From Candidatus Saccharimonadota bacterium (GTDB taxonomy: Bacteria > Patescibacteriota > Saccharimonadia > Saccharimonadales > JAXHNE01): a stretch of 64,000 bases of DNA. The translations under genes were made by a program, and so were the position numbers. The DNA is taken from the NCBI GenBank assembly GCA_034520885.1, contig JAXHNE010000003.1, positions 22,073 to 86,072 on the forward strand. Direction: 5' to 3'. Below, one piece after another: positions 33,482 through 42,177 of the stretch (position 1 is its first letter; each line of letters starts with the position of its first letter). The notes beneath the pieces are model-generated. The model did not search any database. It was not told the origin of the DNA and saw only the letters and a program-made list of their open reading frames with translations.

Positions 33482-35020
33482 TTAATTTACGGTTAATGGG
33501 GCGTGGCCAAGTGGTAAGGCACCAGTTTTTGGTACTGGCATTCGCAGGTTCGAATCCTGCCGCCCCAGCCAAGAAGGATTTTCAGATTTTTCAGACAGAA
33601 CGCGCCAGCGATCGCCAAAGGCGAGGCTGGCGTTTTTGTTGGTCAGGTGGCGGTTCGTTCCGATTTTTCCGACAAACGATTTGATTTCATCATAATCGTT
33701 TGAAACAGCCAGTTTTTCAGCGTGGTGAGCGTCTCGAACCCATTGTTTCAATGGTTCGATCCAATTGTTCCCCTTTTGCCCAAAATCGGCTTTCTTTTGT
33801 TTCAAAGCCAATTTCTGCTTGATAAGCTCGTCTTTCTTGGCGAGGTAAACTTGTTTTTCAATGTTGCCGTCCAAGAATTCATTGACGAGCTTGTCCAGCT
33901 TGGTTTCGGTGGCTTTGATGCGTTCTTCAAGATTTTGAGCAAAAGCCTGCGAAGACTGGCTATTTTCCTTTCCCCAGACATCAATCTGCGCCAGCATCTT
34001 TTCTTGCCAGTCTTCGCTGATAGCAACTTTTGAGATTAACGACTTTAACTGCTCCAGCAATTTATCATCTCGCACATAGCCCTGCGAGCAAGGCACAAGC
34101 CGTTTCGAACAGCGATAGTAGGCATAAGTCCCACCGTTGCCACGAGCATATTGCGCCGTGATTGCCGCACCGCACTCACCACAAGTAAAAAGTCCGGTAA
34201 ACGGAAAGTTATGACTACGCTTGCTCTTTCTCGGCTTGGCCTTGGTCTTTAACACCTTTTGCACTTTCTCAAAAGTTGCTATGGGAACAATTGGCGGAAA
34301 ATCGCCCTCGTATACTTCGCCATTTCGCTTGATAAGCCCGATATACACAGGATTTATTAGGGTCCTCTGCATCATCGATTGGCTAAGCGGTTTTCCGCTG
34401 GCGCTCACCACGCCCCAAAAACTCAGGCGCTGGCGCAGACTCTCCAGACTGTGTCTGCCATCAGAATATTCTTCAAAAGCTCGTTTGAGTATGCGAGCCT
34501 TCACAGAGTCAAGTTCAATGTTGTGTGTCTTGAGATTGTTGACATAACCAATGGGAGCTTTACCAGGCCACTCGCCGCGCCTGAGTTTTTGGCGAATCCC
34601 ACGCTTTACATTCTCCGACAGGTTGTCGGAGTAATATTTACTTTGTCCAAAGGCCACTTGGAGCATAAACAAGCCTTGCGGAGTTGGCTCAAACCAAAAG
34701 GTTGGAAAGCGCAAAGCAACAATTTTGCCAGTGTCTATGCTGTAAATGATCTGCCCGCCATCCATACTATTTCTAGCTAGTCGGTCAGGATGCCAGGCCA
34801 GTATCCCGACTGGCTGTTTACTCTCGTGTATTTTAGCGATCATTTCGTTAAAGACAGGTCGGCCTGGTTGCTTTGCGCTTCTGCTCTCGGTGAAAGTTTC
34901 GGCAATGGCGATATTCTCTCGCTTAGCAAAGTCCGCCAACTCCGCAAGCTGCGCCTCTATGCTCATAACCTGGCGTTCTTCGTCCTCGCTGGACTTTCTG
35001 GCATAGAGAAAATACTTCAT
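33482..35020 (-). CDS. large serine recombinase (true C-terminus uncertain)
   Basis: Catalytic N-terminus MKYFLYARKSSEDEERQ, recombinase domain, Zn-ribbon CGECG...YYRCS, then a coiled coil. The last roughly 55 codons are read from IR-A and antisense tRNA-Gln. Confidence 0.85.
   Translation of the reverse strand: MKYFLYARKSSEDEERQVMSIEAQLAELADFAKRENIAIAETFTESRSAKQPGRPVFNEMIAKIHESKQPVGILAWHPDRLARNSMDGGQIIYSIDTGKIVALRFPTFWFEPTPQGLFMLQVAFGQSKYYSDNLSENVKRGIRQKLRRGEWPGKAPIGYVNNLKTHNIELDSVKARILKRAFEEYSDGRHSLESLRQRLSFWGVVSASGKPLSQSMMQRTLINPVYIGLIKRNGEVYEGDFPPIVPIATFEKVQKVLKTKAKPRKSKRSHNFPFTGLFTCGECGAAITAQYARGNGGTYAYYRCSKRLVPCSQGYVRDDKLLEQLKSLISKVAISEDWQEKMLAQIDVWGKENSQSSQAFAQNLEERIKATETKLDKLVNEFLDGNIEKQVYLAKKDELIKQKLALKQKKADFGQKGNNWIEPLKQWVRDAHHAEKLAVSNDYDEIKSFVGKIGTNRHLTNKNASLAFGDRWRVLSEKSENPSWLGRQDSNLRMPVPKTGALPLGHAPLTVN
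33497..33571 (+). tRNA. trnQ: tRNA-Gln (anticodon TTG), CCA encoded
   Basis: TGGGGCGTGGCCAAGTGGTAAGGCACCAGTTTTTGGTACTGGCATTCGCAGGTTCGAATCCTGCCGCCCCAGCCA. Anticodon stem CCAGT/ACTGG with loop TTTTGGT, T-arm GCAGG-TTCGAAT-CCTGC. Confidence 0.9.
33566..33657. repeat. IR-A left arm (92 bp)
   Basis: Perfect reverse complement of 35139-35230 by hand comparison; includes the last 6 nt of tRNA-Gln. Confidence 0.9.
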
Positions 35021-35138
35021 TTGTTTATGCTCCTAGTCCGTAAAGCGTGGGGTTAAAAACTGTCTGTTTAGTGTCGCTTGCGACGCTTTGGAAAAATCGG
35101 AATACAAAAACTTGTTTTTGTGCGTTGCCCGGCAACGC

Positions 35139-35230
35139 CGAACCGCCACCTGACCAACAAAAACGCCAGCCTCGCCTTTGGCGATCGCTGGCGCGTTCTG
35201 TCTGAAAAATCTGAAAATCCTTCTTGGCTG
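35139..35230. repeat. IR-A right arm (92 bp)
   Basis: Reverse complement of 33566-33657. It is an inverted copy of the recombinase 3' end placed upstream of the recombinase start. Confidence 0.9.
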
Positions 35231-35404
35231 CAGTTGTTGAATGAAGCTCGAACCCTGTTCGAGCGAGATAATTAAATCCCGCCCTGCGGCTCCGCCCGCT
35301 GGCATAGCCAGCGGCCCAAACCAAAAGATTTTTCTTCATGATTGTTTTGAATTTCGGCGGGTGGTTTTTTCTTTTTAATTGAATTCGAAAAATATTTTGG
35401 TTTG
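35225..35404. repeat. IR-B left arm (180 bp)
   Basis: Perfect reverse complement of 39099-39278; its outer end TGGCTG overlaps the IR-A right arm. Confidence 0.9.
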
Positions 35405-35507
35405 ACGAGCCGACCTTACAATAGTCCCATTCTTCTGGTAACATTGTAATGTAGTTTGAGGCCAATTTTCTCATTCCACCCATACAATTTAATGTTACTA
35501 TTTCAAT

Positions 35508-35699
35508 ATGATTAAATCAACTAAAATAAAGCAATTACGAGAAGATTTAGGGCTATCACGAGAAAAGCTAGCTCGACTGGCGGATGTTTCTAATAATACT
35601 CTCATCAACATAGAGTCTGGCAAACAACAAAATCCAACTATTGAAACTATGAAAAAAATAGCAAAAGCGCTTAATGTGTCGATTGAGGAGTTAGTTTAA
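35508..35699 (+). CDS. XRE-family helix-turn-helix transcriptional regulator (63 aa)
   Basis: IKQLREDLGLSREKLARLADVSNNTLINIESGKQQNPTIETMKKIAKALNVSIEEL is a typical HTH_3 sequence. Confidence 0.8.
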   Translation: MIKSTKIKQLREDLGLSREKLARLADVSNNTLINIESGKQQNPTIETMKKIAKALNVSIEELV

Positions 35700-35701
35700 T
35701 T

Positions 35702-36337
35702 ATGAAATTCGATTCACAAAAAACAATAGAGCAACTTGTGGACTATCTCATGCCAGAGTTAACGCCGTATGAGGTGGCGATGTATATACTGCTGTTCCGC
35801 AACACATATTTAAGGAGTGCAAAATCCGAAATACGAATAGGAAAAAGAACAATAGCTGATCTTTATGGTAAAGGCTCGCGTGGAGAAAAAACGAATTATG
35901 CACATGTAACAAAGCTCGTGAAGGGGCTCCAATCAAAAGATTGCATCCACATTGGCGATACAAACCGAGACGGTACCCTATATACGATATTTCTCCCAAG
36001 TGAAATACCACTGGTGAAGGAAAAATTATCCATTACTGCAGATCCAGCAGAAGAAGATTACTATACTGATCCTGAAAAAAGAAAAGAAATACTTGAAAGG
36101 GATAACTATACCTGCCACTACTGTGGTGAGAAAGTGACCGAAGATAATGCAACATTGGATCATCTATTTCCACAACATAAAGGCGGCAAACACGGAAAAG
36201 ACAACCTAAAGACAAGTTGTTTGATTTGCAATAGTATTAAGTCTGGCAAGACCTATGAAGAAGCTGCTCCACACCTGTTAAAAAGCATTCAAGATAGAAG
36301 ACAAAAACAAGTCGATCGAACAAAGTCTGGAAAGTAA
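35702..36337 (+). CDS. HNH endonuclease with N-terminal winged-helix-like domain (211 aa)
   Basis: CHYCGEKV...DHLFPQHKGGKHGKDNLKTSCLICNSIK (HNH, Cys4 type). Starts 2 nt after the HTH stop. Confidence 0.8.
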   Translation: MKFDSQKTIEQLVDYLMPELTPYEVAMYILLFRNTYLRSAKSEIRIGKRTIADLYGKGSRGEKTNYAHVTKLVKGLQSKDCIHIGDTNRDGTLYTIFLPSEIPLVKEKLSITADPAEEDYYTDPEKRKEILERDNYTCHYCGEKVTEDNATLDHLFPQHKGGKHGKDNLKTSCLICNSIKSGKTYEEAAPHLLKSIQDRRQKQVDRTKSGK

Positions 36338-36339
36338 TA

Positions 36340-38976
36340 ATGTCGGTTTCGGTGAAGACACATGCAAAAGATTATCTTCTTGAATATAAAACCAAGAATG
36401 ATATGCCTCAATGGTTAGCGTTGTTAATCCAGAAGACAATTGACACAAATGCAAAACTCTCTGATGGAGAGAAGAATCTAGTGTTCCAAAAACTACTCGA
36501 AGAAAATGGAATTAATACTCAGCAAGGCCTTGAAGAGACCAAGAGCGACAAAGGAATAGACAATAAAGAAACAATAGCCAGTTCAAAAGAACAAAAGCTT
36601 ACTTTGCAAAAAATTACTCATGTAAAAGGTGTTAATGCTCTTATTCCGAATCAGTCAATTACTCTAAGTTCAGCGTGTACTGTAATCTTTGGACTTAACG
36701 GCGCTGGTAAAAGTGGATACTTTAGAATACTCCATGAACTTGCAGGTGGAATTAAATCTAAAAACATTTTAGACAATATTCATAACCAAGGCGACGGTTT
36801 AGAAGTTAATGTGGATTTTTTATTAGATAACAGAACGCAAAAACCCTTCAAATGGGATGATAAAACACTGCGCGGTATTGCTCCGTTTGATCGGGTAAAA
36901 GTTTTTGATACGGAATATTTACCAATTTTCTTAAATGAGCGTGAAAGCTCAGTAAATATAGAGCCGCTTGGGCTTAATTTTTTTCAGACAATTGCAACAG
37001 TTATCGACGGATTTAAGGAAAAGCTAGACCAAGATCGACAGCAAGAACAAAACACGTCCCCTGACCTACAAACATTAATAGAAGTTATTCACTCTAATGA
37101 ATTGAAAATATTACTTGACAAGGATTCATTAACAAAGCAGGAAGAACAACTATTAAATAGCAATAAGCACTTTTCAAATGATGACACAGAAAAACTCACT
37201 AAATTGAAAAACGACAAGACTTTACTTGAAAAAAACAATACGGAAGACAGTAGAAAAGTGTTAAATCAAGAAAAGAAGGAGATTGATGATCTCGATAATC
37301 ACTTATCTTGCCTAAAAACAAACCTTGAAAAACTAACCAAGGATATCTCATCTGCCATAAATAATTATCTAAAAACTAAGAAAATAAGGGATGAGCGGCT
37401 AAAACAATTTGAGGTTTTAAAAAACATACCTTCTCAAGACAGTGAGGAGTGGCAAGGTTTTGTTGAGTCAGCGAAAGAATACGGTACAGAAATTGACCAG
37501 TCCACGTTTAACAGTGACGAAAAATGTATCTATTGCCATCAGCCATTGAGTGATGAGGCAATGAAGCTCATTCAGGCGTATGCTCAATATCTGGATGATC
37601 AGTCTCAACAAAATTTTAAAGACTCTGTTGATAAAGTTACCGAGCTGAAAGAAGAAATTGATGATTTAATCACGGATTTTGCTTTTTCTGAAAATTTGGA
37701 AAAAGCATTGGCCAAGATACACAATGCTCAGGAACAAGACTACAAGACGTTGGTTGCTCAAATTTTAACAGCAGCAAAGAGCCAAAAAGGAGGTTTAGAT
37801 AAAGCACTAAATGAAAAAACTGCTGTAGCTGAAAAGTATACGCTAGATTTATTTAGCGCAGACGAAAAACTTGAAAAGCTGTCAGAATCAAAGCAAAAAG
37901 AGCTGGATGGCTTGCAGCAATCATATGCGCAAAAATCTAAAAAAATAAATGAGATTGTAGTAGAGATTAACAGGCTTGAAGACAAGCGAAATATTACAAA
38001 ATGGAAAACAAAGATTGAAAATTATTTCTCAACTAGCAAGTGTGTACAAAAATATTCAGCCCTTAATCAAGCAATTAGCACAAGGGGAATTACAGAGCTG
38101 GGCTCAAAAGCACATGATGAGCTTTTGACAGATTCAATAAAAAAATCTTTTGAGGAGGAGTTAAAGGCTCTTGGCAAAGATATAGAAGTTAGTCCTGAAA
38201 CAACAGGAGCAGGAAAGGGTTCTGTGCGCACAGGACTTAAAATTTTAGGAAAAGATGTGCGTACTATCCTAAGTGATGGCGAGCAAAAAGCAGTTGGCCT
38301 TGCACTATTTCTAGCAGAGATTGAAAGCCAAAATGATAAAAGCCCTATTGTGTTCGATGACCCTGTTACAAGTATTGATCATGAAGTAGCCGATGCATTA
38401 GCAAAAAAACTTATGAGTTTGTCATCTGACAGACAAATCATTGTCTTTACTCACAACAAACTGTTCTATGACTCATTAGTCTATTGGGGAGGAAGTCTTA
38501 AGGATGAAAAAGATAATAAAACTCATCATGTGTGCAAAAACTACACTCAAAAAGGTTGTAGCGGCCAAGGTTGTCACGTTTACACTTATAAAGTCGATAG
38601 AGAAGCAAAGGATAAAACGGGTAAAATATTTGAAGCACAGAACGAATCATGCAGTTATTTTATTGAAAAAGCCGAGAAAGAGATGAAGGGCAATTACTCG
38701 TTAAGCAGTGTTTCTGGTTACTTAAAGTCAGCAATCGAATATTATATTGATGAGAAAGTGCTATTAAAAACCGGCTTGATGAAGGATCGACTTCGCGGCA
38801 TTGGAGTGCCCTGGGAAAATCTTAAAAAAATCGATAATAAAGAAGAAATCATCAATAAACCTGAGGCCTACTGGAGTAATTTAAGTAATCGCGGAACTCA
38901 TGTCACTCAAAATTCAAATGAGAACCCTTTGAAAACCGAAGACTTAAATAACATCATTGATTTTTTAAAATCTTAG
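36340..38976 (+). CDS. Rad50/SMC-like ABC ATPase with coiled-coil CxxC hook, AAA_13 / RloC-like (878 aa)
   Basis: Walker A GLNGAGKSG, long Lys/Glu-rich coiled coil with CIYCHQPL in the middle, signature LSDGEQKAV, Walker B IVFDDPVTSID, H-loop VFTHN. The C-terminal tail has LKSAIEYY...NRGTH, reminiscent of the PrrC/RloC nuclease motif. Confidence 0.65.
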   Translation: MSVSVKTHAKDYLLEYKTKNDMPQWLALLIQKTIDTNAKLSDGEKNLVFQKLLEENGINTQQGLEETKSDKGIDNKETIASSKEQKLTLQKITHVKGVNALIPNQSITLSSACTVIFGLNGAGKSGYFRILHELAGGIKSKNILDNIHNQGDGLEVNVDFLLDNRTQKPFKWDDKTLRGIAPFDRVKVFDTEYLPIFLNERESSVNIEPLGLNFFQTIATVIDGFKEKLDQDRQQEQNTSPDLQTLIEVIHSNELKILLDKDSLTKQEEQLLNSNKHFSNDDTEKLTKLKNDKTLLEKNNTEDSRKVLNQEKKEIDDLDNHLSCLKTNLEKLTKDISSAINNYLKTKKIRDERLKQFEVLKNIPSQDSEEWQGFVESAKEYGTEIDQSTFNSDEKCIYCHQPLSDEAMKLIQAYAQYLDDQSQQNFKDSVDKVTELKEEIDDLITDFAFSENLEKALAKIHNAQEQDYKTLVAQILTAAKSQKGGLDKALNEKTAVAEKYTLDLFSADEKLEKLSESKQKELDGLQQSYAQKSKKINEIVVEINRLEDKRNITKWKTKIENYFSTSKCVQKYSALNQAISTRGITELGSKAHDELLTDSIKKSFEEELKALGKDIEVSPETTGAGKGSVRTGLKILGKDVRTILSDGEQKAVGLALFLAEIESQNDKSPIVFDDPVTSIDHEVADALAKKLMSLSSDRQIIVFTHNKLFYDSLVYWGGSLKDEKDNKTHHVCKNYTQKGCSGQGCHVYTYKVDREAKDKTGKIFEAQNESCSYFIEKAEKEMKGNYSLSSVSGYLKSAIEYYIDEKVLLKTGLMKDRLRGIGVPWENLKKIDNKEEIINKPEAYWSNLSNRGTHVTQNSNENPLKTEDLNNIIDFLKS

Positions 38977-39098
38977 ATAGAATTTATAGTGCCTGATTTG
39001 GTTAAATTTAGCATCACATTTACAAGTTTGCCACTAGGCCCGCGCCGAAGGCGCGGCTGGGGTGGGAGCGGCTCCCTTACTTGCTTTAGCAAGGGAGA

Positions 39099-39278
39099 CA
39101 AACCAAAATATTTTTCGAATTCAATTAAAAAGAAAAAACCACCCGCCGAAATTCAAAACAATCATGAAGAAAAATCTTTTGGTTTGGGCCGCTGGCTATG
39201 CCAGCGGGCGGAGCCGCAGGGCGGGATTTAATTATCTCGCTCGAACAGGGTTCGAGCTTCATTCAACAACTGCAGCCA
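39099..39278. repeat. IR-B right arm (180 bp)
   Basis: Reverse complement of 35225-35404. Ends ...GGGTTCGAGCTTCATTCAACAACTGCAGCCA, which resembles a tRNA 3' end. Confidence 0.9.
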
Positions 39279-39757
39279 TTCGACCCTGAAAACCATCCGG
39301 CTCAGGGCGAAGCAGGCTCATGGCTGTAAGCCATCAGACGAAATCATGATTTTTTCAGCCGGAGACTGGAGAATGTCCTGAGCAACGTCGAAGGACTATT
39401 CATGTACTATCTATACATTCTGCGCAATGCGCACAACCGACTATACATTGGGCATACGAACAACCTGGAACGTCGCCTCCAAGATCATAGCAGTCAGTCA
39501 GGCGCTAAGTTTGTTAAAGATTATGGCGATTTTGAATTAGTTTATTTTGAAGAATTTGCCAGTAGAGCCAAAGCCATGAAACGGGAAAAACAAGTAAAAG
39601 GTTGGTCAAGAGCCAAAAAAGAAGCCTTGATTTCAGCCGATATTGAAACCTTAAAGAGTCTTTCAAGAACTCGTGGCAGTAAGGAGGCTCGCCAAAATAC
39701 ACCTTCGTAATCCTATCTACCGCCCTAAGCCTGACGCGATAAAGGACTACACCAATC
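39273..39757 (+). mobile_element. GIY-YIG element: conserved 5' flank, GIY-YIG ORF, conserved 3' flank
   Basis: The flanks recur without the ORF at 42000-42177. The 5' flank and a gene stub recur at about 40660-40789. Confidence 0.45.
39402..39710 (+). CDS. GIY-YIG nuclease family protein (102 aa)
   Basis: MYYLYILRNAHNRLYIGHTNNLERRLQDH...E...KREKQVKGWSRAKKEALI is the classic small GIY-YIG (UPF0213-like) pattern. Confidence 0.85.
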   Translation: MYYLYILRNAHNRLYIGHTNNLERRLQDHSSQSGAKFVKDYGDFELVYFEEFASRAKAMKREKQVKGWSRAKKEALISADIETLKSLSRTRGSKEARQNTPS

Positions 39758-39974
39758 ACTATAAATTCGAGGTTAAAGCAAATATGTACTCACGCAACTT
39801 TGTTATAATTAAAGTGCCTGGTTGCCCGTAAAACTATGGTCAGGCGAGCAACTTGACTGTGTCGAGCTGCTCGCCGGGCCATAGAAACCAGCTTATTACA
39901 AGGAAGGTTGGGCAACGGTATCCAGGCTTTGGACCTGTATGCCCTAGCCAAGTATTGCAACAAAGGAGACCAGG

Positions 39975-40637
39975 GTGTCAAAGAGAAACAAATTCCAGAA
40001 AATTAGGAAATGGTTAGAACATGACATCAATAACAGAGTTAAGCGAAAGACCAGTCAAGATCTTTTCGACTGGCTTATGCTTGCCATATGGGCAGTTGTA
40101 ACCTTATTAATTGCCTTATTCTCTGAAGACGATCTTCTAAACAACTTGATTTTATGGTTTACCGCCTATGCAGTTATCAGATATACAAAAGAGACATACT
40201 GGCTAAAGGTAATTGCACAGAAAGATCTGGAAAGTAACAAGGTGTCTCAAAAAAATGAGTTTATGCCAATCTTAACGTTTAGTGGAGAAGGGTCAATAAT
40301 TCAAGGCCGTAACTTGAACATAAAATTAACAAATATCGGCAAAGGCTTGGCTAGAAATATCACTATCTGGGTTGAGGGACATAAGATCACTGATGGATTT
40401 GATATGGCTCCCGACATTAATAATTATTCACCCGGTGTATCTCCAGAGATAAGTGACGCAATAAATGCATTGACTGCAGAAGAAGGGCGAACAGAGCTCA
40501 ATATGTCTATAGACTATTATGATATATTCGAGAGACACTTCAAGTTAACTGGAGTTAAGTTTCTTAAAGATGATGACATCTCTGGGAATCGATATGTGTT
40601 GCAAAGGTTCACTGGTAAAAGTAAGTTTCCATTTTAA
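39975..40637 (+). CDS. hypothetical membrane-anchored protein (220 aa, GTG start)
   Basis: Two N-terminal TM helices; no motif recognised. Confidence 0.4.
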   Translation: MSKRNKFQKIRKWLEHDINNRVKRKTSQDLFDWLMLAIWAVVTLLIALFSEDDLLNNLILWFTAYAVIRYTKETYWLKVIAQKDLESNKVSQKNEFMPILTFSGEGSIIQGRNLNIKLTNIGKGLARNITIWVEGHKITDGFDMAPDINNYSPGVSPEISDAINALTAEEGRTELNMSIDYYDIFERHFKLTGVKFLKDDDISGNRYVLQRFTGKSKFPF

Positions 40638-40744
40638 ATAAATTCTTATCTCTAATCTAGACCGCAATGCTCAGCCATCAGACAAAATCATCAACTTTCA
40701 GCCATCAGGTTGGAGAATGTTCTGAGCAAAGCCGAAGAACGATC

Positions 40745-40789
40745 ATGTTTGTATATGTCCTTAGGTGTACGAGGCTTGTACAGGATTGA
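40745..40789 (+). pseudogene. truncated GIY-YIG gene remnant
   Basis: The same leader as the intact copy (GGAGAATGTTCTGAGCAAAGCCGAAGAACGATC) precedes ATG. It reads MFVYVLRCTRLVQD-stop, against MYYLYILRNAHNRLYIGHT in the intact gene. Confidence 0.4.
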
Positions 40790-40898
40790 ATATCGAAAAA
40801 CTACCTCTTAGTCTTGAGAGACGAAATCCGTGCAAGCGAAGCGCATCCTGCATCCCCGGCCATTCATTATGTTATAATTTTAATATTAACAATTTGAC

Positions 40899-40996
40899 AA
40901 TATAAAGAGTGCGGGGAGAGACTTGCTTGTTGATCCGCCAGCAACCTATCTAACGACAAGGTGCTCCATCAAGCCCTGTATAGGGAAAGATATACA
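40899..40996 (+). promoter_or_regulatory. SAM-I (S-box) riboswitch aptamer
   Basis: Hand alignment to the S-box consensus. AAGAG junction, kink-turn-like GGAG/UGAU in P2, CAGCAACC...GGUGCU (P3), CCCU-GUAU-AGGG (P4), AAAGAUAU closing P1. GGGAAAG can alternatively pair with the terminator 5' arm. Confidence 0.6.
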
Positions 40997-41006
40997 CAAT
41001 TCTTAC

Positions 41007-41032
41007 ACCTTTCCTTGTACGGAAAGGTTTTT
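41007..41032 (+). terminator. riboswitch expression-platform terminator
   Basis: ACCTTTCC-TTGTAC-GGAAAGGT followed by TTTT, ending 3 nt before the metA ATG. Confidence 0.6.
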
Positions 41033-41034
41033 AA

Positions 41035-41958
41035 ATGCCCATCGTTACGCCAGAATATAGCACAGACACACACCTATTTGAACGTCTCCAAGATTGTGGA
41101 GCAATAGTTATTGATCAAGAGGAAGCAGAGACACAAGACATACGTCCGGCAAAAATTGGCTTATTGAATCTTATGCCGGCACAAGTCATGGAAGCAACAG
41201 AACTTAGATGGCTTAGATTTATTAGTCATACTGTCCTTCAGATTGAACCGGTATTATTGAAGTTTGATGATGACAAACGAGAACTGCCTAATTCAAGTCG
41301 CAGAAACGTTCTTAAAAGATATCATCCATTTTCAGCTGCTACTGAGGATGGCTTAGATGGTCTTATTGTAACTGGGGACAACCAGGAGCGTCAGCAGGAT
41401 GGCACACCACTACCTATGAATGAACTACATTACGCCGAAGATCTAAAAGAGGTTATCGACTGGGCAAACAGCAATATTAGCGCCTCAATCTATTCCTGCC
41501 TTGCAAGCCACTATGCCCTCAACTACCAATACGGACTGTGTCGAGATATTAAAAACAGGAAATTTTTTGGTGTCTACGATCACCATGTTATGAAAGAGTC
41601 AGAAATAACTTTTGCAATGGATGATCTGATAAGGGCGCCACACTCTCGATGGGGGACTATTGCCACAGAGCATCTTGAAGCAGCAGGCTTGGATGTGTTA
41701 GCAGTAAGCGAAGAAGCAGGATGGCTTATTGCAGAAGATGTCTCATTAAGTGGCAACACAAATACTTATCTACAAGGTCATCCAGAATATTGGCGCTACG
41801 ATTTACATGATGAGTACGTAAGAGACAGGCAGTATGTGCCGGAAAATTACTACCCAGGCGACAATCCAGAGTTGCAGCCTATTTTATCGTGGTCTGGTGA
41901 CGCACGATCACTACTCTCGAACTGGATTCAAGGGATATATAAGAGCTATTCTTCGTAG
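41035..41958 (+). CDS. metA: homoserine O-acyltransferase, MetA family
   Basis: IRPAKIGLLNLMP, VLLKFDDD, LDGLIVTG, HSRWG motifs match MetA/HTS. Confidence 0.8.
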   Translation: MPIVTPEYSTDTHLFERLQDCGAIVIDQEEAETQDIRPAKIGLLNLMPAQVMEATELRWLRFISHTVLQIEPVLLKFDDDKRELPNSSRRNVLKRYHPFSAATEDGLDGLIVTGDNQERQQDGTPLPMNELHYAEDLKEVIDWANSNISASIYSCLASHYALNYQYGLCRDIKNRKFFGVYDHHVMKESEITFAMDDLIRAPHSRWGTIATEHLEAAGLDVLAVSEEAGWLIAEDVSLSGNTNTYLQGHPEYWRYDLHDEYVRDRQYVPENYYPGDNPELQPILSWSGDARSLLSNWIQGIYKSYSS

Positions 41959-41999
41959 CTTCTCATTTTACGCCGCAAGAGGTTTCAGACCACAACGCT

Positions 42000-42177
42000 C
42001 AGCCATTCGACCCTGAAAACCATCCGGCTCAGGGCGCGCAGGCTCATGGCTTGCGGCCCAGCCAGCAAGAAATGAGATTGAGAATGTCCTGAGCAACACC
42101 GAATGACTTAGAAGAATATACCTTCGTAATCCTATCTACCACCCTAAACTTCACGTAATAGAGGGCTACCCCAACCA
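42000..42177 (+). repeat. ORF-less copy of the GIY-YIG element flanks, including a tRNA-Gln 3'-end-like segment
   Basis: The 5' flank CAGCCATTCGACCCTGAAAACCATCCGGCTCAGGGC...GAGAATGTCCTGAGCAAC joins the 3' flank ACCTTCGTAATCCTATCTACC through only about 12 nt. 42038-42064 GCAGGCTCATGGCTTGCGGCCCAGCCA resembles the tRNA-Gln T-arm/acceptor. Confidence 0.6.

Follow-up and report, generated by a model that had tools for sequence, protein, structure and literature searches.

We analysed a 64,000-nt stretch of contig JAXHNE010000003.1 from a Candidatus Saccharimonadota genome (the window; all positions are coordinates of this full stretch), in which three related copies of a short cassette, A (39273-39758), C (40659-40862) and B (41987-42177), lie 3′ of a tRNA-Gln gene. 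In copy A, a structured element that begins at a tRNA-type CCA is followed by an intact open reading frame (ORF) for a small GIY-YIG protein and then by a decayed copy of the tRNA-Gln 3′ end; in C the ORF is reduced to a stub, and from B it is missing (Table 1). The relationship of the copies is evident from direct comparison. Positions 39273-39309 and 42000-42036 share 37 nt at 100% identity, and a 29-nt block, GAGAATGTCCTGAGCAACGTCGAAGGACT, at 39369-39397 recurs at 40713-40741 (83%) and 42080-42108 (90%). Longer or weaker similarities join 39329-39399 to 40673-40743 (75%), the 3′ flank 39696-39758 to 42115-42177 (83%), and 40659-40683 to 41987-42011 (84%). A profile hidden Markov model (HMM) built from 24 elements, copy A among them, and searched with nhmmer across the window matched exactly these three places (E 4.4e-11 for A, 7e-10 for B and 4.9e-4 for C); the same search found no fourth copy in the 64 kb. 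The initial annotation of this DNA had described a GIY-YIG gene in intact, decayed and ORF-less states between similar flanks. The repeats, Pfam and the HMM confirm these states as A, C and B, and the flank similarity is statistically supported (profile E 4e-11, 7e-10 and 5e-4 for A, B and C).

As judged from their sequences, B and C are deletion derivatives with ragged boundaries rather than clean empty sites. Copy B has lost ~290 nt, from just 3′ of the leader into the spacer that precedes the tRNA remnant. Its leader and 3′ flank had been described as joined by about 12 nt; the join is indeed very short, at ~11 nt, and 5 of the 11 positions match the sequence directly before the 3′ flank of A. 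A B-type leader is found in front of an intact 92-aa ORF in a relative, L019, from the same sequencing run and a different strain. Copy C combines a 56-nt leader deletion between direct repeats with an internal deletion that removed most of the ORF; the 14-codon stub (MFVYVLRC...) reported for it is present, with its exact position at 40745-40789. The initial annotation had favoured gain and loss of the ORF between fixed flanks, as for a homing-endonuclease gene, and had named ragged deletions as the alternative. Ragged deletions are what the window holds (~290 nt in B; 56 nt and internal ORF loss in C). The clean presence and absence of an ORF between identical flanks that would mark homing was not seen, as the boundaries of B and C differ and no orthologous empty site was recovered. 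The absence of DNA-binding domains from the protein also speaks against gain and loss of this kind. The similarity between A and B stops at ..CACCAATCA (39750-39758) and ..CCCCAACCA (42169-42177), possibly a second CCA-like right end of the duplicated unit.

Table 1. Cassette copies and neighbouring features in the window.
Feature	Position	Strand	Remarks
tRNA-Gln(UUG)	33497-33571	+	Ends ...CCGCCCCAGCCA; presumed original anchor of cassette A; ARAGORN, Rfam tRNA 66 bits
Copy A, structured element	39276-39396	+	CCA-TTCGAC, GCTCATGGCTGTAAGCC, GAATG-TCCTGAGC, end GTCGAAGGAC; regex parse, nhmmer, covariation over 20 elements, fold z-score about -2.4
Copy A, GIY-YIG ORF	39402-39710	+	102 aa, intact, single-domain; Pfam, homologues, alignment, PDB match
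Copy A, right flank	39704-39758	+	Decayed tRNA-Gln 3′-end copy TTCGTAATCCTATCTACCGCCCTAAGCC (39704-39731), then ~27 nt in common with B
Copy C, element	40659-40741	+	Left flank AGACCGCAATGCTCAGCCA like left flank of B; 56 nt gone (hp1, GCTCATGG core, hp2) between direct repeats AGCCATTCGAC / AGCCATCAGAC
Copy C, ORF stub	40745-40789	+	MFVYVLRCTRLVQD*, 14 codons; ~210 nt of ORF gone
Copy C, right remnant	40845-40862	+	ATCCTGCATCCCCGGCCA; 15/18 match to tRNA-Gln 3′ end
Copy B, left flank and ORF-less element	41987-42108	+	First 37 nt as in A; rest of L019 type, extra 5 nt create CCCAGCCA
Copy B, deletion junction and right flank	42109-42177	+	Junction TAGAAGAATAT, decayed tRNA-Gln 3′ copy TTCGTAATCCTATCTACCACCCTAAAC, then shared right flank
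Low-GC island separating tRNA-Gln from cassette A	33572-39272		5.7 kb, CAGCCA at both bounds
Large serine recombinase gene	33658-35020	minus	Inside island
HNH gene	35702-36337		Inside island; weak PtuB-like matches
AAA_13 gene	36340-38976		878 aa; PADLOC candidate defence family PDC-S06, E 2.6e-198

The ORF of copy A encodes a full-length GIY-YIG domain (Pfam PF01541, E 9.8e-22, residues 1-73 of 102) that keeps all family-invariant residues in the alignment, and Pfam finds no other domain in it. Homologues are 87-95 aa long; compared with relatives of 87-93 aa, the protein has 10-15 additional aa because the frame reads on into the spacer and the tRNA remnant. An NCBI entry derived from a Candidatus Saccharibacteria (TM7) genome has the same sequence; exact-protein look-ups returned no record of the window protein. 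Its best PDB matches are the UPF0213 protein BH0048 (1ZG2, E 4.5e-13) and EF2693 (1YWL, E 4e-07). With E. coli YhbQ, whose annotation is that of a DNA-damage-response exonuclease, it shares 36% identity, and its TIGR01453 score of 24.9 bits lies below the cutoff of 56.05. Neither Pfam nor TIGR01453 revealed a classical homing-endonuclease DNA-binding module, leaving the catalytic domain alone.

The element is ~100-150 nt long, starts at the tRNA CCA and folds on the tRNA-sense strand. Its consensus reads CCA-UUCGAC(ext), variable hairpin, (ext)GCUCAUGG, GGCY-nnn-RGCC hairpin, (ext)GUCGAAUG, GYCCU-GAGC(ext) ... (ext)GUCGA-AGGRC, which can be summarized as the motif CCA-UUCGAC...GCUCAUGGCYnnnRGCC...GAAUG-YCCUGAGC...GUCGAAGGRC. 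For the 5′ strand CCAUUCGAC together with its extension there are two alternative pairing partners downstream, ..GUCGAAUG (helix A/A′1) or ..GUCGAAGG (A/A′2); the element also has the GGCY/RGCC hairpin (hp2) and a GYCCU/AGGRC hairpin (c/c′). We counted pairs in block alignments of 20 and 16 elements, using 500 shuffles and slid alignments as controls. The structure A/A′1 + hp2 + c/c′ was paired in 91.2% of cells, with double changes at 9 pairs, a percentage which the regex-chosen anchors inflate somewhat and which leaves the compensatory changes unaffected; none of the 500 shuffles came as high, and slid alignments reached at most 44.6%. The c/c′ hairpin alone was 98.9% paired, with compensatory changes in 4 of its 5 pairs. 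The alternative A/A′2 + B/B′, in which the 5′ strand pairs with ..GUCGAAGG and GCUCA with UGAGC, was 88.5% paired, and both alternative partner strands track the variable extension of the 5′ strand. Pairing of the element is supported by these counts; the double pairing of the 5′ strand could reflect a switch or three copies of one binding site. Folding of single sequences gave z-scores of roughly -2.4 to -2.5, whether they were treated as RNA or as either DNA strand. No Rfam family matched the elements, at gathering thresholds or at E <= 10, and the only matches in the region or close to it were tRNAs and a SAM riboswitch. A known ribozyme was considered and rejected, with no CUGANGA/GAAA hammerhead core by eye and no Rfam match.

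The initial annotation had taken the stem-loop and GCAGGCTCATGGCTTGCGGCCCAGCCA in the 5′ flank for a remnant of the tRNA-Gln T-arm and acceptor end. The similarity is real (gapped, within the top 0.56% of window tiles) but it is not homology: the corresponding GCTCATGGCYnnnRGCC is the invariant core of the element, and lies behind genes for tRNA-Gln, Leu, Asn, Arg and Val in several phyla. Likewise, the tail CCCAGCCA of B was rejected as a tRNA end, being formed by 5 nt that are extra relative to the B-type leader of L019. The proposed link of the cassettes to the tRNA-Gln 3′ end does stand, as the leaders of relatives start at ...CAGCCA and tRNA copies lie downstream; what falls away is the remnant in the 5′ flank.

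To place the element in a wider context we scanned one genome per species with the pattern TTCGAC..GCTCATGGCYnnnRGCC, requiring neither CCA nor an ORF. CCA precedes 32 of the 122 matches, against ~2 expected; the remaining matches are chance occurrences in GC-rich coding DNA. True matches come from Patescibacteria, Verrucomicrobiota, Lentisphaerota, Armatimonadota, Planctomycetota and proteobacterial metagenome-assembled genomes (MAGs). Among 43 distinct elements, 16 sit at offset 0 from an intact tRNA gene (Gln, Leu, Asn, Arg or Val), 19 have a same-strand GIY-YIG ORF 3′ of them and 24 are ORF-less; in all 19 ORF-bearing cases the element is upstream of the ORF. Among the elements from this unbiased scan, a GIY-YIG ORF follows 11 of 33 (Patescibacteria, Verrucomicrobiota, Lentisphaerota and Planctomycetota). 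Individual loci illustrate the arrangement. The element is at tRNA-Leu(CAG) in L017 and at tRNA-Asn in L023, L101, L149 and L151, and a second tRNA-Leu gene of L017 carries an ORF-less element followed directly by tRNA-Val. In cassettes encoding the 93-aa protein P0012 the element begins at the ...CAGCCA of an intact tRNA-Gln(CUG) or tRNA-Gln(UUG) gene. The identical P0012 protein and leader occur behind both of these genes and also in non-tRNA contexts, a recurrence which, as far as sequence can tell, indicates mobility. At one position downstream of a DUF5679 gene the ORF is intact in L010 and decayed in L013. ORF-less elements elsewhere (L017 and the Armatimonadota loci) are common and show no ORF debris, so the element can exist alone, like a non-autonomous partner. 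Several such elements per genome, away from tRNAs and resembling REP or miniature inverted-repeat transposable elements (MITEs), were seen in one Armatimonadota MAG (L041, L059 and L071), and 50-60-nt short forms occur in viral contigs (L154-L156). A scan of metagenomes with the lineage-specific leader pattern gave only 3 unrelated chance matches. Searches of the literature brought up no account of a GIY-YIG element linked to tRNAs, and both the tRNA linkage and the architecture of the element appear to be undescribed.

Downstream of the ORFs lie copies of tRNA 3′ ends that span the T-loop to CCA. The repeats are 18/18 nt in L101, 16 perfect (19/21) in L149, and 18/18 and 12/12 in L151; L009 and L014 have imperfect 21-nt copies, and in L033 a decayed tRNA remnant is followed by a second element without ORF. 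Direct repeats of the 3′ part of the tRNA thus flank inserted DNA in L101, L149, L151, L009, L014 and copy C of the window. In L101, L149, L151 and L009 only ~370-480 nt separate the repeats, coding for nothing but the element and the GIY-YIG gene, and no integrase was found within their 3-4 kb flanks. In the window, 40845-40862 agrees with the 3′ end of tRNA-Gln in 15 of 18 positions (0.01 expected by chance) and is the sole non-tRNA match. The right remnant of A (TTCGTAATCCTATCTACCGCCCTAAGCC, 39704-39731) aligns to this tRNA end with gaps and scores within the top 0.56% of window tiles; its counterpart in B likewise aligns with gaps. As read from the sequence, the A and B remnants share derived indels (TTCG+T and +ATCTA), which argues that they were copied together with the cassette, and not left by separate insertions. 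Displaced att-like ends from successive insertions, which the initial annotation had suggested for the 5′ flank, are not supported. Taken as a whole, its proposal of a homing endonuclease flanked by att-like tRNA ends finds partial support: it is right in spirit and wrong in detail, and the phenomenon is more general than that annotation supposed.

The boundaries of the tRNA-end copies show some further regularities. The perfect repeats of L101 and L151 are exactly 18 nt, corresponding to tRNA positions 59-76, just after A58, whereas the mismatches of the 21-nt copies (L009, L149 and window 40842-40862) fall in the T-loop; the contrast places the junction in the T-loop. An analogy to a retroviral primer-binding site, which has the same length of 18 nt, was set aside, as the copies are same-sense and there is no reverse transcriptase; we leave it as an unexplained coincidence. 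L151 also contains, at 2150-2316, a different insert of ~150 nt, preceded by tRNA-Asn and followed by the 18-nt tRNA-end repeat in front of the cassette. It starts TGGTTCGACAAGCTCACC and shares the TTCGAC..GCTCA theme, so that a second kind of element makes use of this site.

The tRNA-Gln gene of the window has CAGCCA as its last six bases, up to 33571, and the same six bases open copy A at 39273. Since relatives have TTCGAC directly after the CCA of tRNA-Gln, the low-GC island between the two (Table 1) was probably inserted there, separating a formerly adjacent pair; GC is low across 34 to 45 kb. The HNH and AAA_13 genes (35702-38976) are a probable defence pair carried by the island beside tRNA-Gln. 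Two pairs of perfect inverted repeats, 33566-33657/35139-35230 (92 nt) and 35225-35404/39099-39278 (180 nt), meet at CAGCCA and bracket the serine recombinase gene and a second module, and the recombinase frame continues through the repeat into the tRNA. This arrangement may represent a structure that is invertible or attP-like, or it may stem from the assembly. An assembly artefact is conceivable at least in part, because an independent Logan contig of the same organism breaks at 33567. The gene upstream of tRNA-Gln is an orphan whose only other contig ends inside the tRNA, and an orthologous locus without the island was not obtained. The segment between the decayed copies C and B (40897-41958), which is part of the low-GC island, holds metA, encoding homoserine O-succinyltransferase, together with a SAM-I riboswitch (47.2 bits) and a hairpin that resembles a terminator (41007-41028); metA and its riboswitch appear to be island cargo. 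A perfect palindrome of 25-26 nt, GTGTTATATAACTAGTTATATAACA, occurs five times in the window (10305, 44508, 45492, 50255 and 57087) and may be a regulator-binding or terminator-like site.

How could such cassettes arise and spread? We put at about even the chance that the three copies, A intact and B and C decayed, represent a small selfish cassette whose habitat is the 3′ end of tRNA genes. Its parts would be the element starting from the tRNA CCA, a single-domain GIY-YIG gene of the UPF0213/Ssn type, and a right-end copy of the tRNA 3′ end, from T-loop to CCA. Ssn proteins are single-domain GIY-YIG nucleases that bind hairpin repeats (NTS/SRM) on either side of the genes encoding them and cut only single-stranded DNA (ssDNA), adjacent to these hairpins; the layout is like that of insertion sequences (Chenal et al., Nat Commun 2025, PMC11893778). 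By analogy, the cassette nuclease would recognize the folded element or the tRNA-gene end as ssDNA, and would nick or break at the recognized site. Copying of the cassette into tRNA genes with the same 3′ end would be the work of host recombination, for which the tRNA and its duplicated 3′ end would serve as homology arms, and ORF-less elements would spread or persist as non-autonomous copies. Copy A would once have stood directly behind tRNA-Gln, until the serine-recombinase/defence island entered at CAGCCA|TTCGAC; B and C would be older paralogous copies in the same integration hotspot, with the ORF lost by deletion.

Several observations weigh against this proposal. GIY-YIG nucleases hydrolyse DNA without strand transfer, so mobility needs host recombination or another enzyme. 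An occupied and empty pair of the same tRNA locus was not recovered, and the intervening orf220 and the SAM riboswitch-metA unit are not explained by simple successive insertion of cassettes. The placement of the protein is uncertain: with UPF0213 as its best PDB match, it could belong to the Ssn clade (cd10448) or to UPF0213/YhbQ (cd10456), and the nuclease activity of this clade is predicted from sequence. The published SRM motif, HGTCWYN(0-2)YYVSBRHN(0-5)WNVSBRGN(0-2)RNCYNB, is absent from both strands of the 64-kb window (0 matches) and also from two plasmid loci. Apart from the inflation of pairing percentages mentioned above, covariation (from pairing or from co-variation of repeated sites) cannot separate RNA from ssDNA. 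In addition, the element has the same orientation as the tRNAs, and at some loci (L017, L049, L070 and L132) it is enclosed by tRNA genes of an operon; its transcription is therefore certain, and it may function as RNA.

Indeed, the element might be mainly a functional RNA, serving as the 3′ trailer of tRNA precursors and/or as a 5′ leader that controls translation of the GIY-YIG gene. The latter would be an ordinary YhbQ-like host gene for a DNA-damage nuclease, expressed from tRNA promoters, and the window copies would stem from segmental duplication in the tRNA-Gln hotspot. Such a role fits the constant co-orientation of element, tRNA and ORF, the start at CCA and the occurrence inside tRNA operons, as well as the switch-like pair of alternative helices for one 5′ strand, the c/c′ wobble pairs found on the sense strand only, and the 36% identity to YhbQ. 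In copy A, AAGGAC stands 6 nt before the ATG, its Shine-Dalgarno-like AAGGA being the 3′ strand of c/c′. We nevertheless consider this explanation unlikely. It accounts neither for the tRNA 3′-end direct repeats 3′ of the ORF nor for identical cassettes behind two different tRNA-Gln genes, and the element behaves as a dispersed repeat (ORF-less and tRNA-less copies, copies on multiple contigs of one Armatimonadota MAG, viral short forms) with no Rfam match even at E <= 10. In several cassettes of the candidate phyla radiation (CPR), a TGTATAAT box between element and ATG would, if read correctly, put the element outside the mRNA; promoter and terminator scans were not above chance, and the box is a reading of the sequence only. 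Similarly improbable, in our view, is a new class of minimal mobile element, made up of element and nuclease, that homes to tRNA CCA ends. Here the internal strand ..GUCGAAUGG would pair with the junction CCAUUCGAC as an IS200/IS605-like guide by which a bare GIY-YIG ssDNA nuclease would cut at tRNA gene ends, host recombination would complete the reaction, and the ORF-less elements would be its MITE-like forms in many phyla.

The cassettes could instead be passive passengers of tyrosine or serine integrases encoded elsewhere, which use the tRNA T-loop and 3′ end as attB; the repeats would be attL/attR cores, and the GIY-YIG protein would play no part in mobility. The stretch from T-loop to CCA is a classical crossover sublocation of integrases in tRNA genes and is just what the repeats span. 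This part of the window is moreover an integration hotspot: it contains a large serine recombinase gene and perfect inverted repeats that converge on CAGCCA, and GC is low between 34 and 45 kb. The units of L101, L149, L151 and L009, at ~370-480 nt, contain the element and GIY-YIG gene only and have no integrase in 3-4 kb of flanks, however, and passive carriage leaves the conservation of the element across phyla and its coupling to GIY-YIG genes unexplained, which makes it distinctly unlikely. Finally, the source is a MAG, the nearby perfect 92- and 180-nt inverted repeats could be assembly problems, and the independent assembly breaks at 33567. For the cassettes themselves, chance similarity or an assembly artefact is nonetheless effectively refuted, and we give it next to no weight, given the profile matches (E 4e-11 and 7e-10), the same architecture in dozens of independent assemblies from several phyla, and the 15/18 tRNA match against 0.01 expected.

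If the selfish-cassette proposal is correct, single-domain nucleases of the Ssn type would gain a concrete genomic lifestyle, parasitism of tRNA gene ends, with a cognate element much larger and more elaborate than the known hairpins. The proposal would also account for a widespread repeat, CCATTCGAC...GCTCATGGC...GTCGAAGG, which in CPR bacteria, Verrucomicrobiota, Armatimonadota and other phyla follows tRNA genes and occurs at further places. It is directly testable, with a 102-aa protein and candidate substrates defined to the base, and such cassettes are a possible source of new nuclease/target pairs for ssDNA tools. In addition, tRNA 3′ trailers are flagged as spots prone to errors of annotation and MAG assembly.

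We compared the cassette with characterized systems. SegB of phage T4 is a free-standing GIY-YIG homing endonuclease encoded in a tRNA gene cluster (PMC2330249, PMC13096335). The resemblance lies in a GIY-YIG gene among or behind tRNA genes; SegB is thought to spread via cleavage of DNA without the gene, followed by recombinational co-conversion. Enzymes of the SegB type have C-terminal DNA-binding modules and act on double-stranded DNA, whereas the window protein is a bare catalytic domain, and we know of no reported structured element or duplicated tRNA end for SegB. Integrative elements with att sites in tRNA genes, whose T-loop and 3′-end attB sublocations were reportedly classified by Williams in 2002, likewise have an intact tRNA at one end and a displaced T-loop-to-CCA copy at the opposite end, and form remnant arrays in hotspots. 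The unit here, however, is 0.37-0.48 kb and has no integrase, the serine recombinase of the window sitting in a separate 5.7-kb insert.

REP/BIME-RAYT and IS200/IS605 systems share with the cassette hairpin elements with and without a nuclease gene, insertion directly 3′ of a short fixed sequence (here CCA), a right end that resembles the target, and an internal GAAUGG complementary to the junction CCAUUC. They differ in that the present protein is a hydrolytic GIY-YIG enzyme and not an HUH/Y1 transposase (TnpA/RAYT), with no covalent strand transfer expected, and in that the ORF lies outside the element bounded by inverted repeats. UPF0213/YhbQ proteins give the best sequence matches among solved structures (1ZG2 and 1YWL), but their biological role is poorly defined and we found no report of a tRNA-linked element for them. 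SegB, the tRNA-att islands and REP/RAYT or IS200/IS605 each share one aspect with the cassette and fail in a defining feature.

The comparison with Ssn goes further. The cassette protein is also a single-domain GIY-YIG protein of ~90-100 aa without a DNA-binding domain, and its gene stands beside a conserved, oriented, hairpin-forming repeat that has ORF-less copies elsewhere, in an architecture like that of insertion sequences, a likeness on which Chenal et al. remarked for Ssn. Placement in the Ssn clade (cd10448) would be tentative, the nearest solved structures being UPF0213. The element here is 100-150 nt long, with several helices and an invariant GCUCAUGGC core, in contrast to an Ssn hairpin of 20-50 nt, and in the loci examined it is upstream only, whereas Ssn repeats lie on both sides of the gene. 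It is also fused to tRNA CCA ends, in a cassette with a tRNA 3′-end copy, while tRNAs are not mentioned in PMC11893778. On the Novosphingobium plasmid pNL2 (L144), inverted copies of CGTCGCCCCGTGCTTGACACGGGGCTTGG at 1440-1480 and 1812-1845 stand on both sides of a GIY-YIG gene whose product shares 40% identity with the window protein; these hairpins look NTS-like by eye, yet are missed by the published SRM regex. Taken together, Ssn is the closest characterized system to the cassette, and that the cassette works like Ssn is the best available inference.

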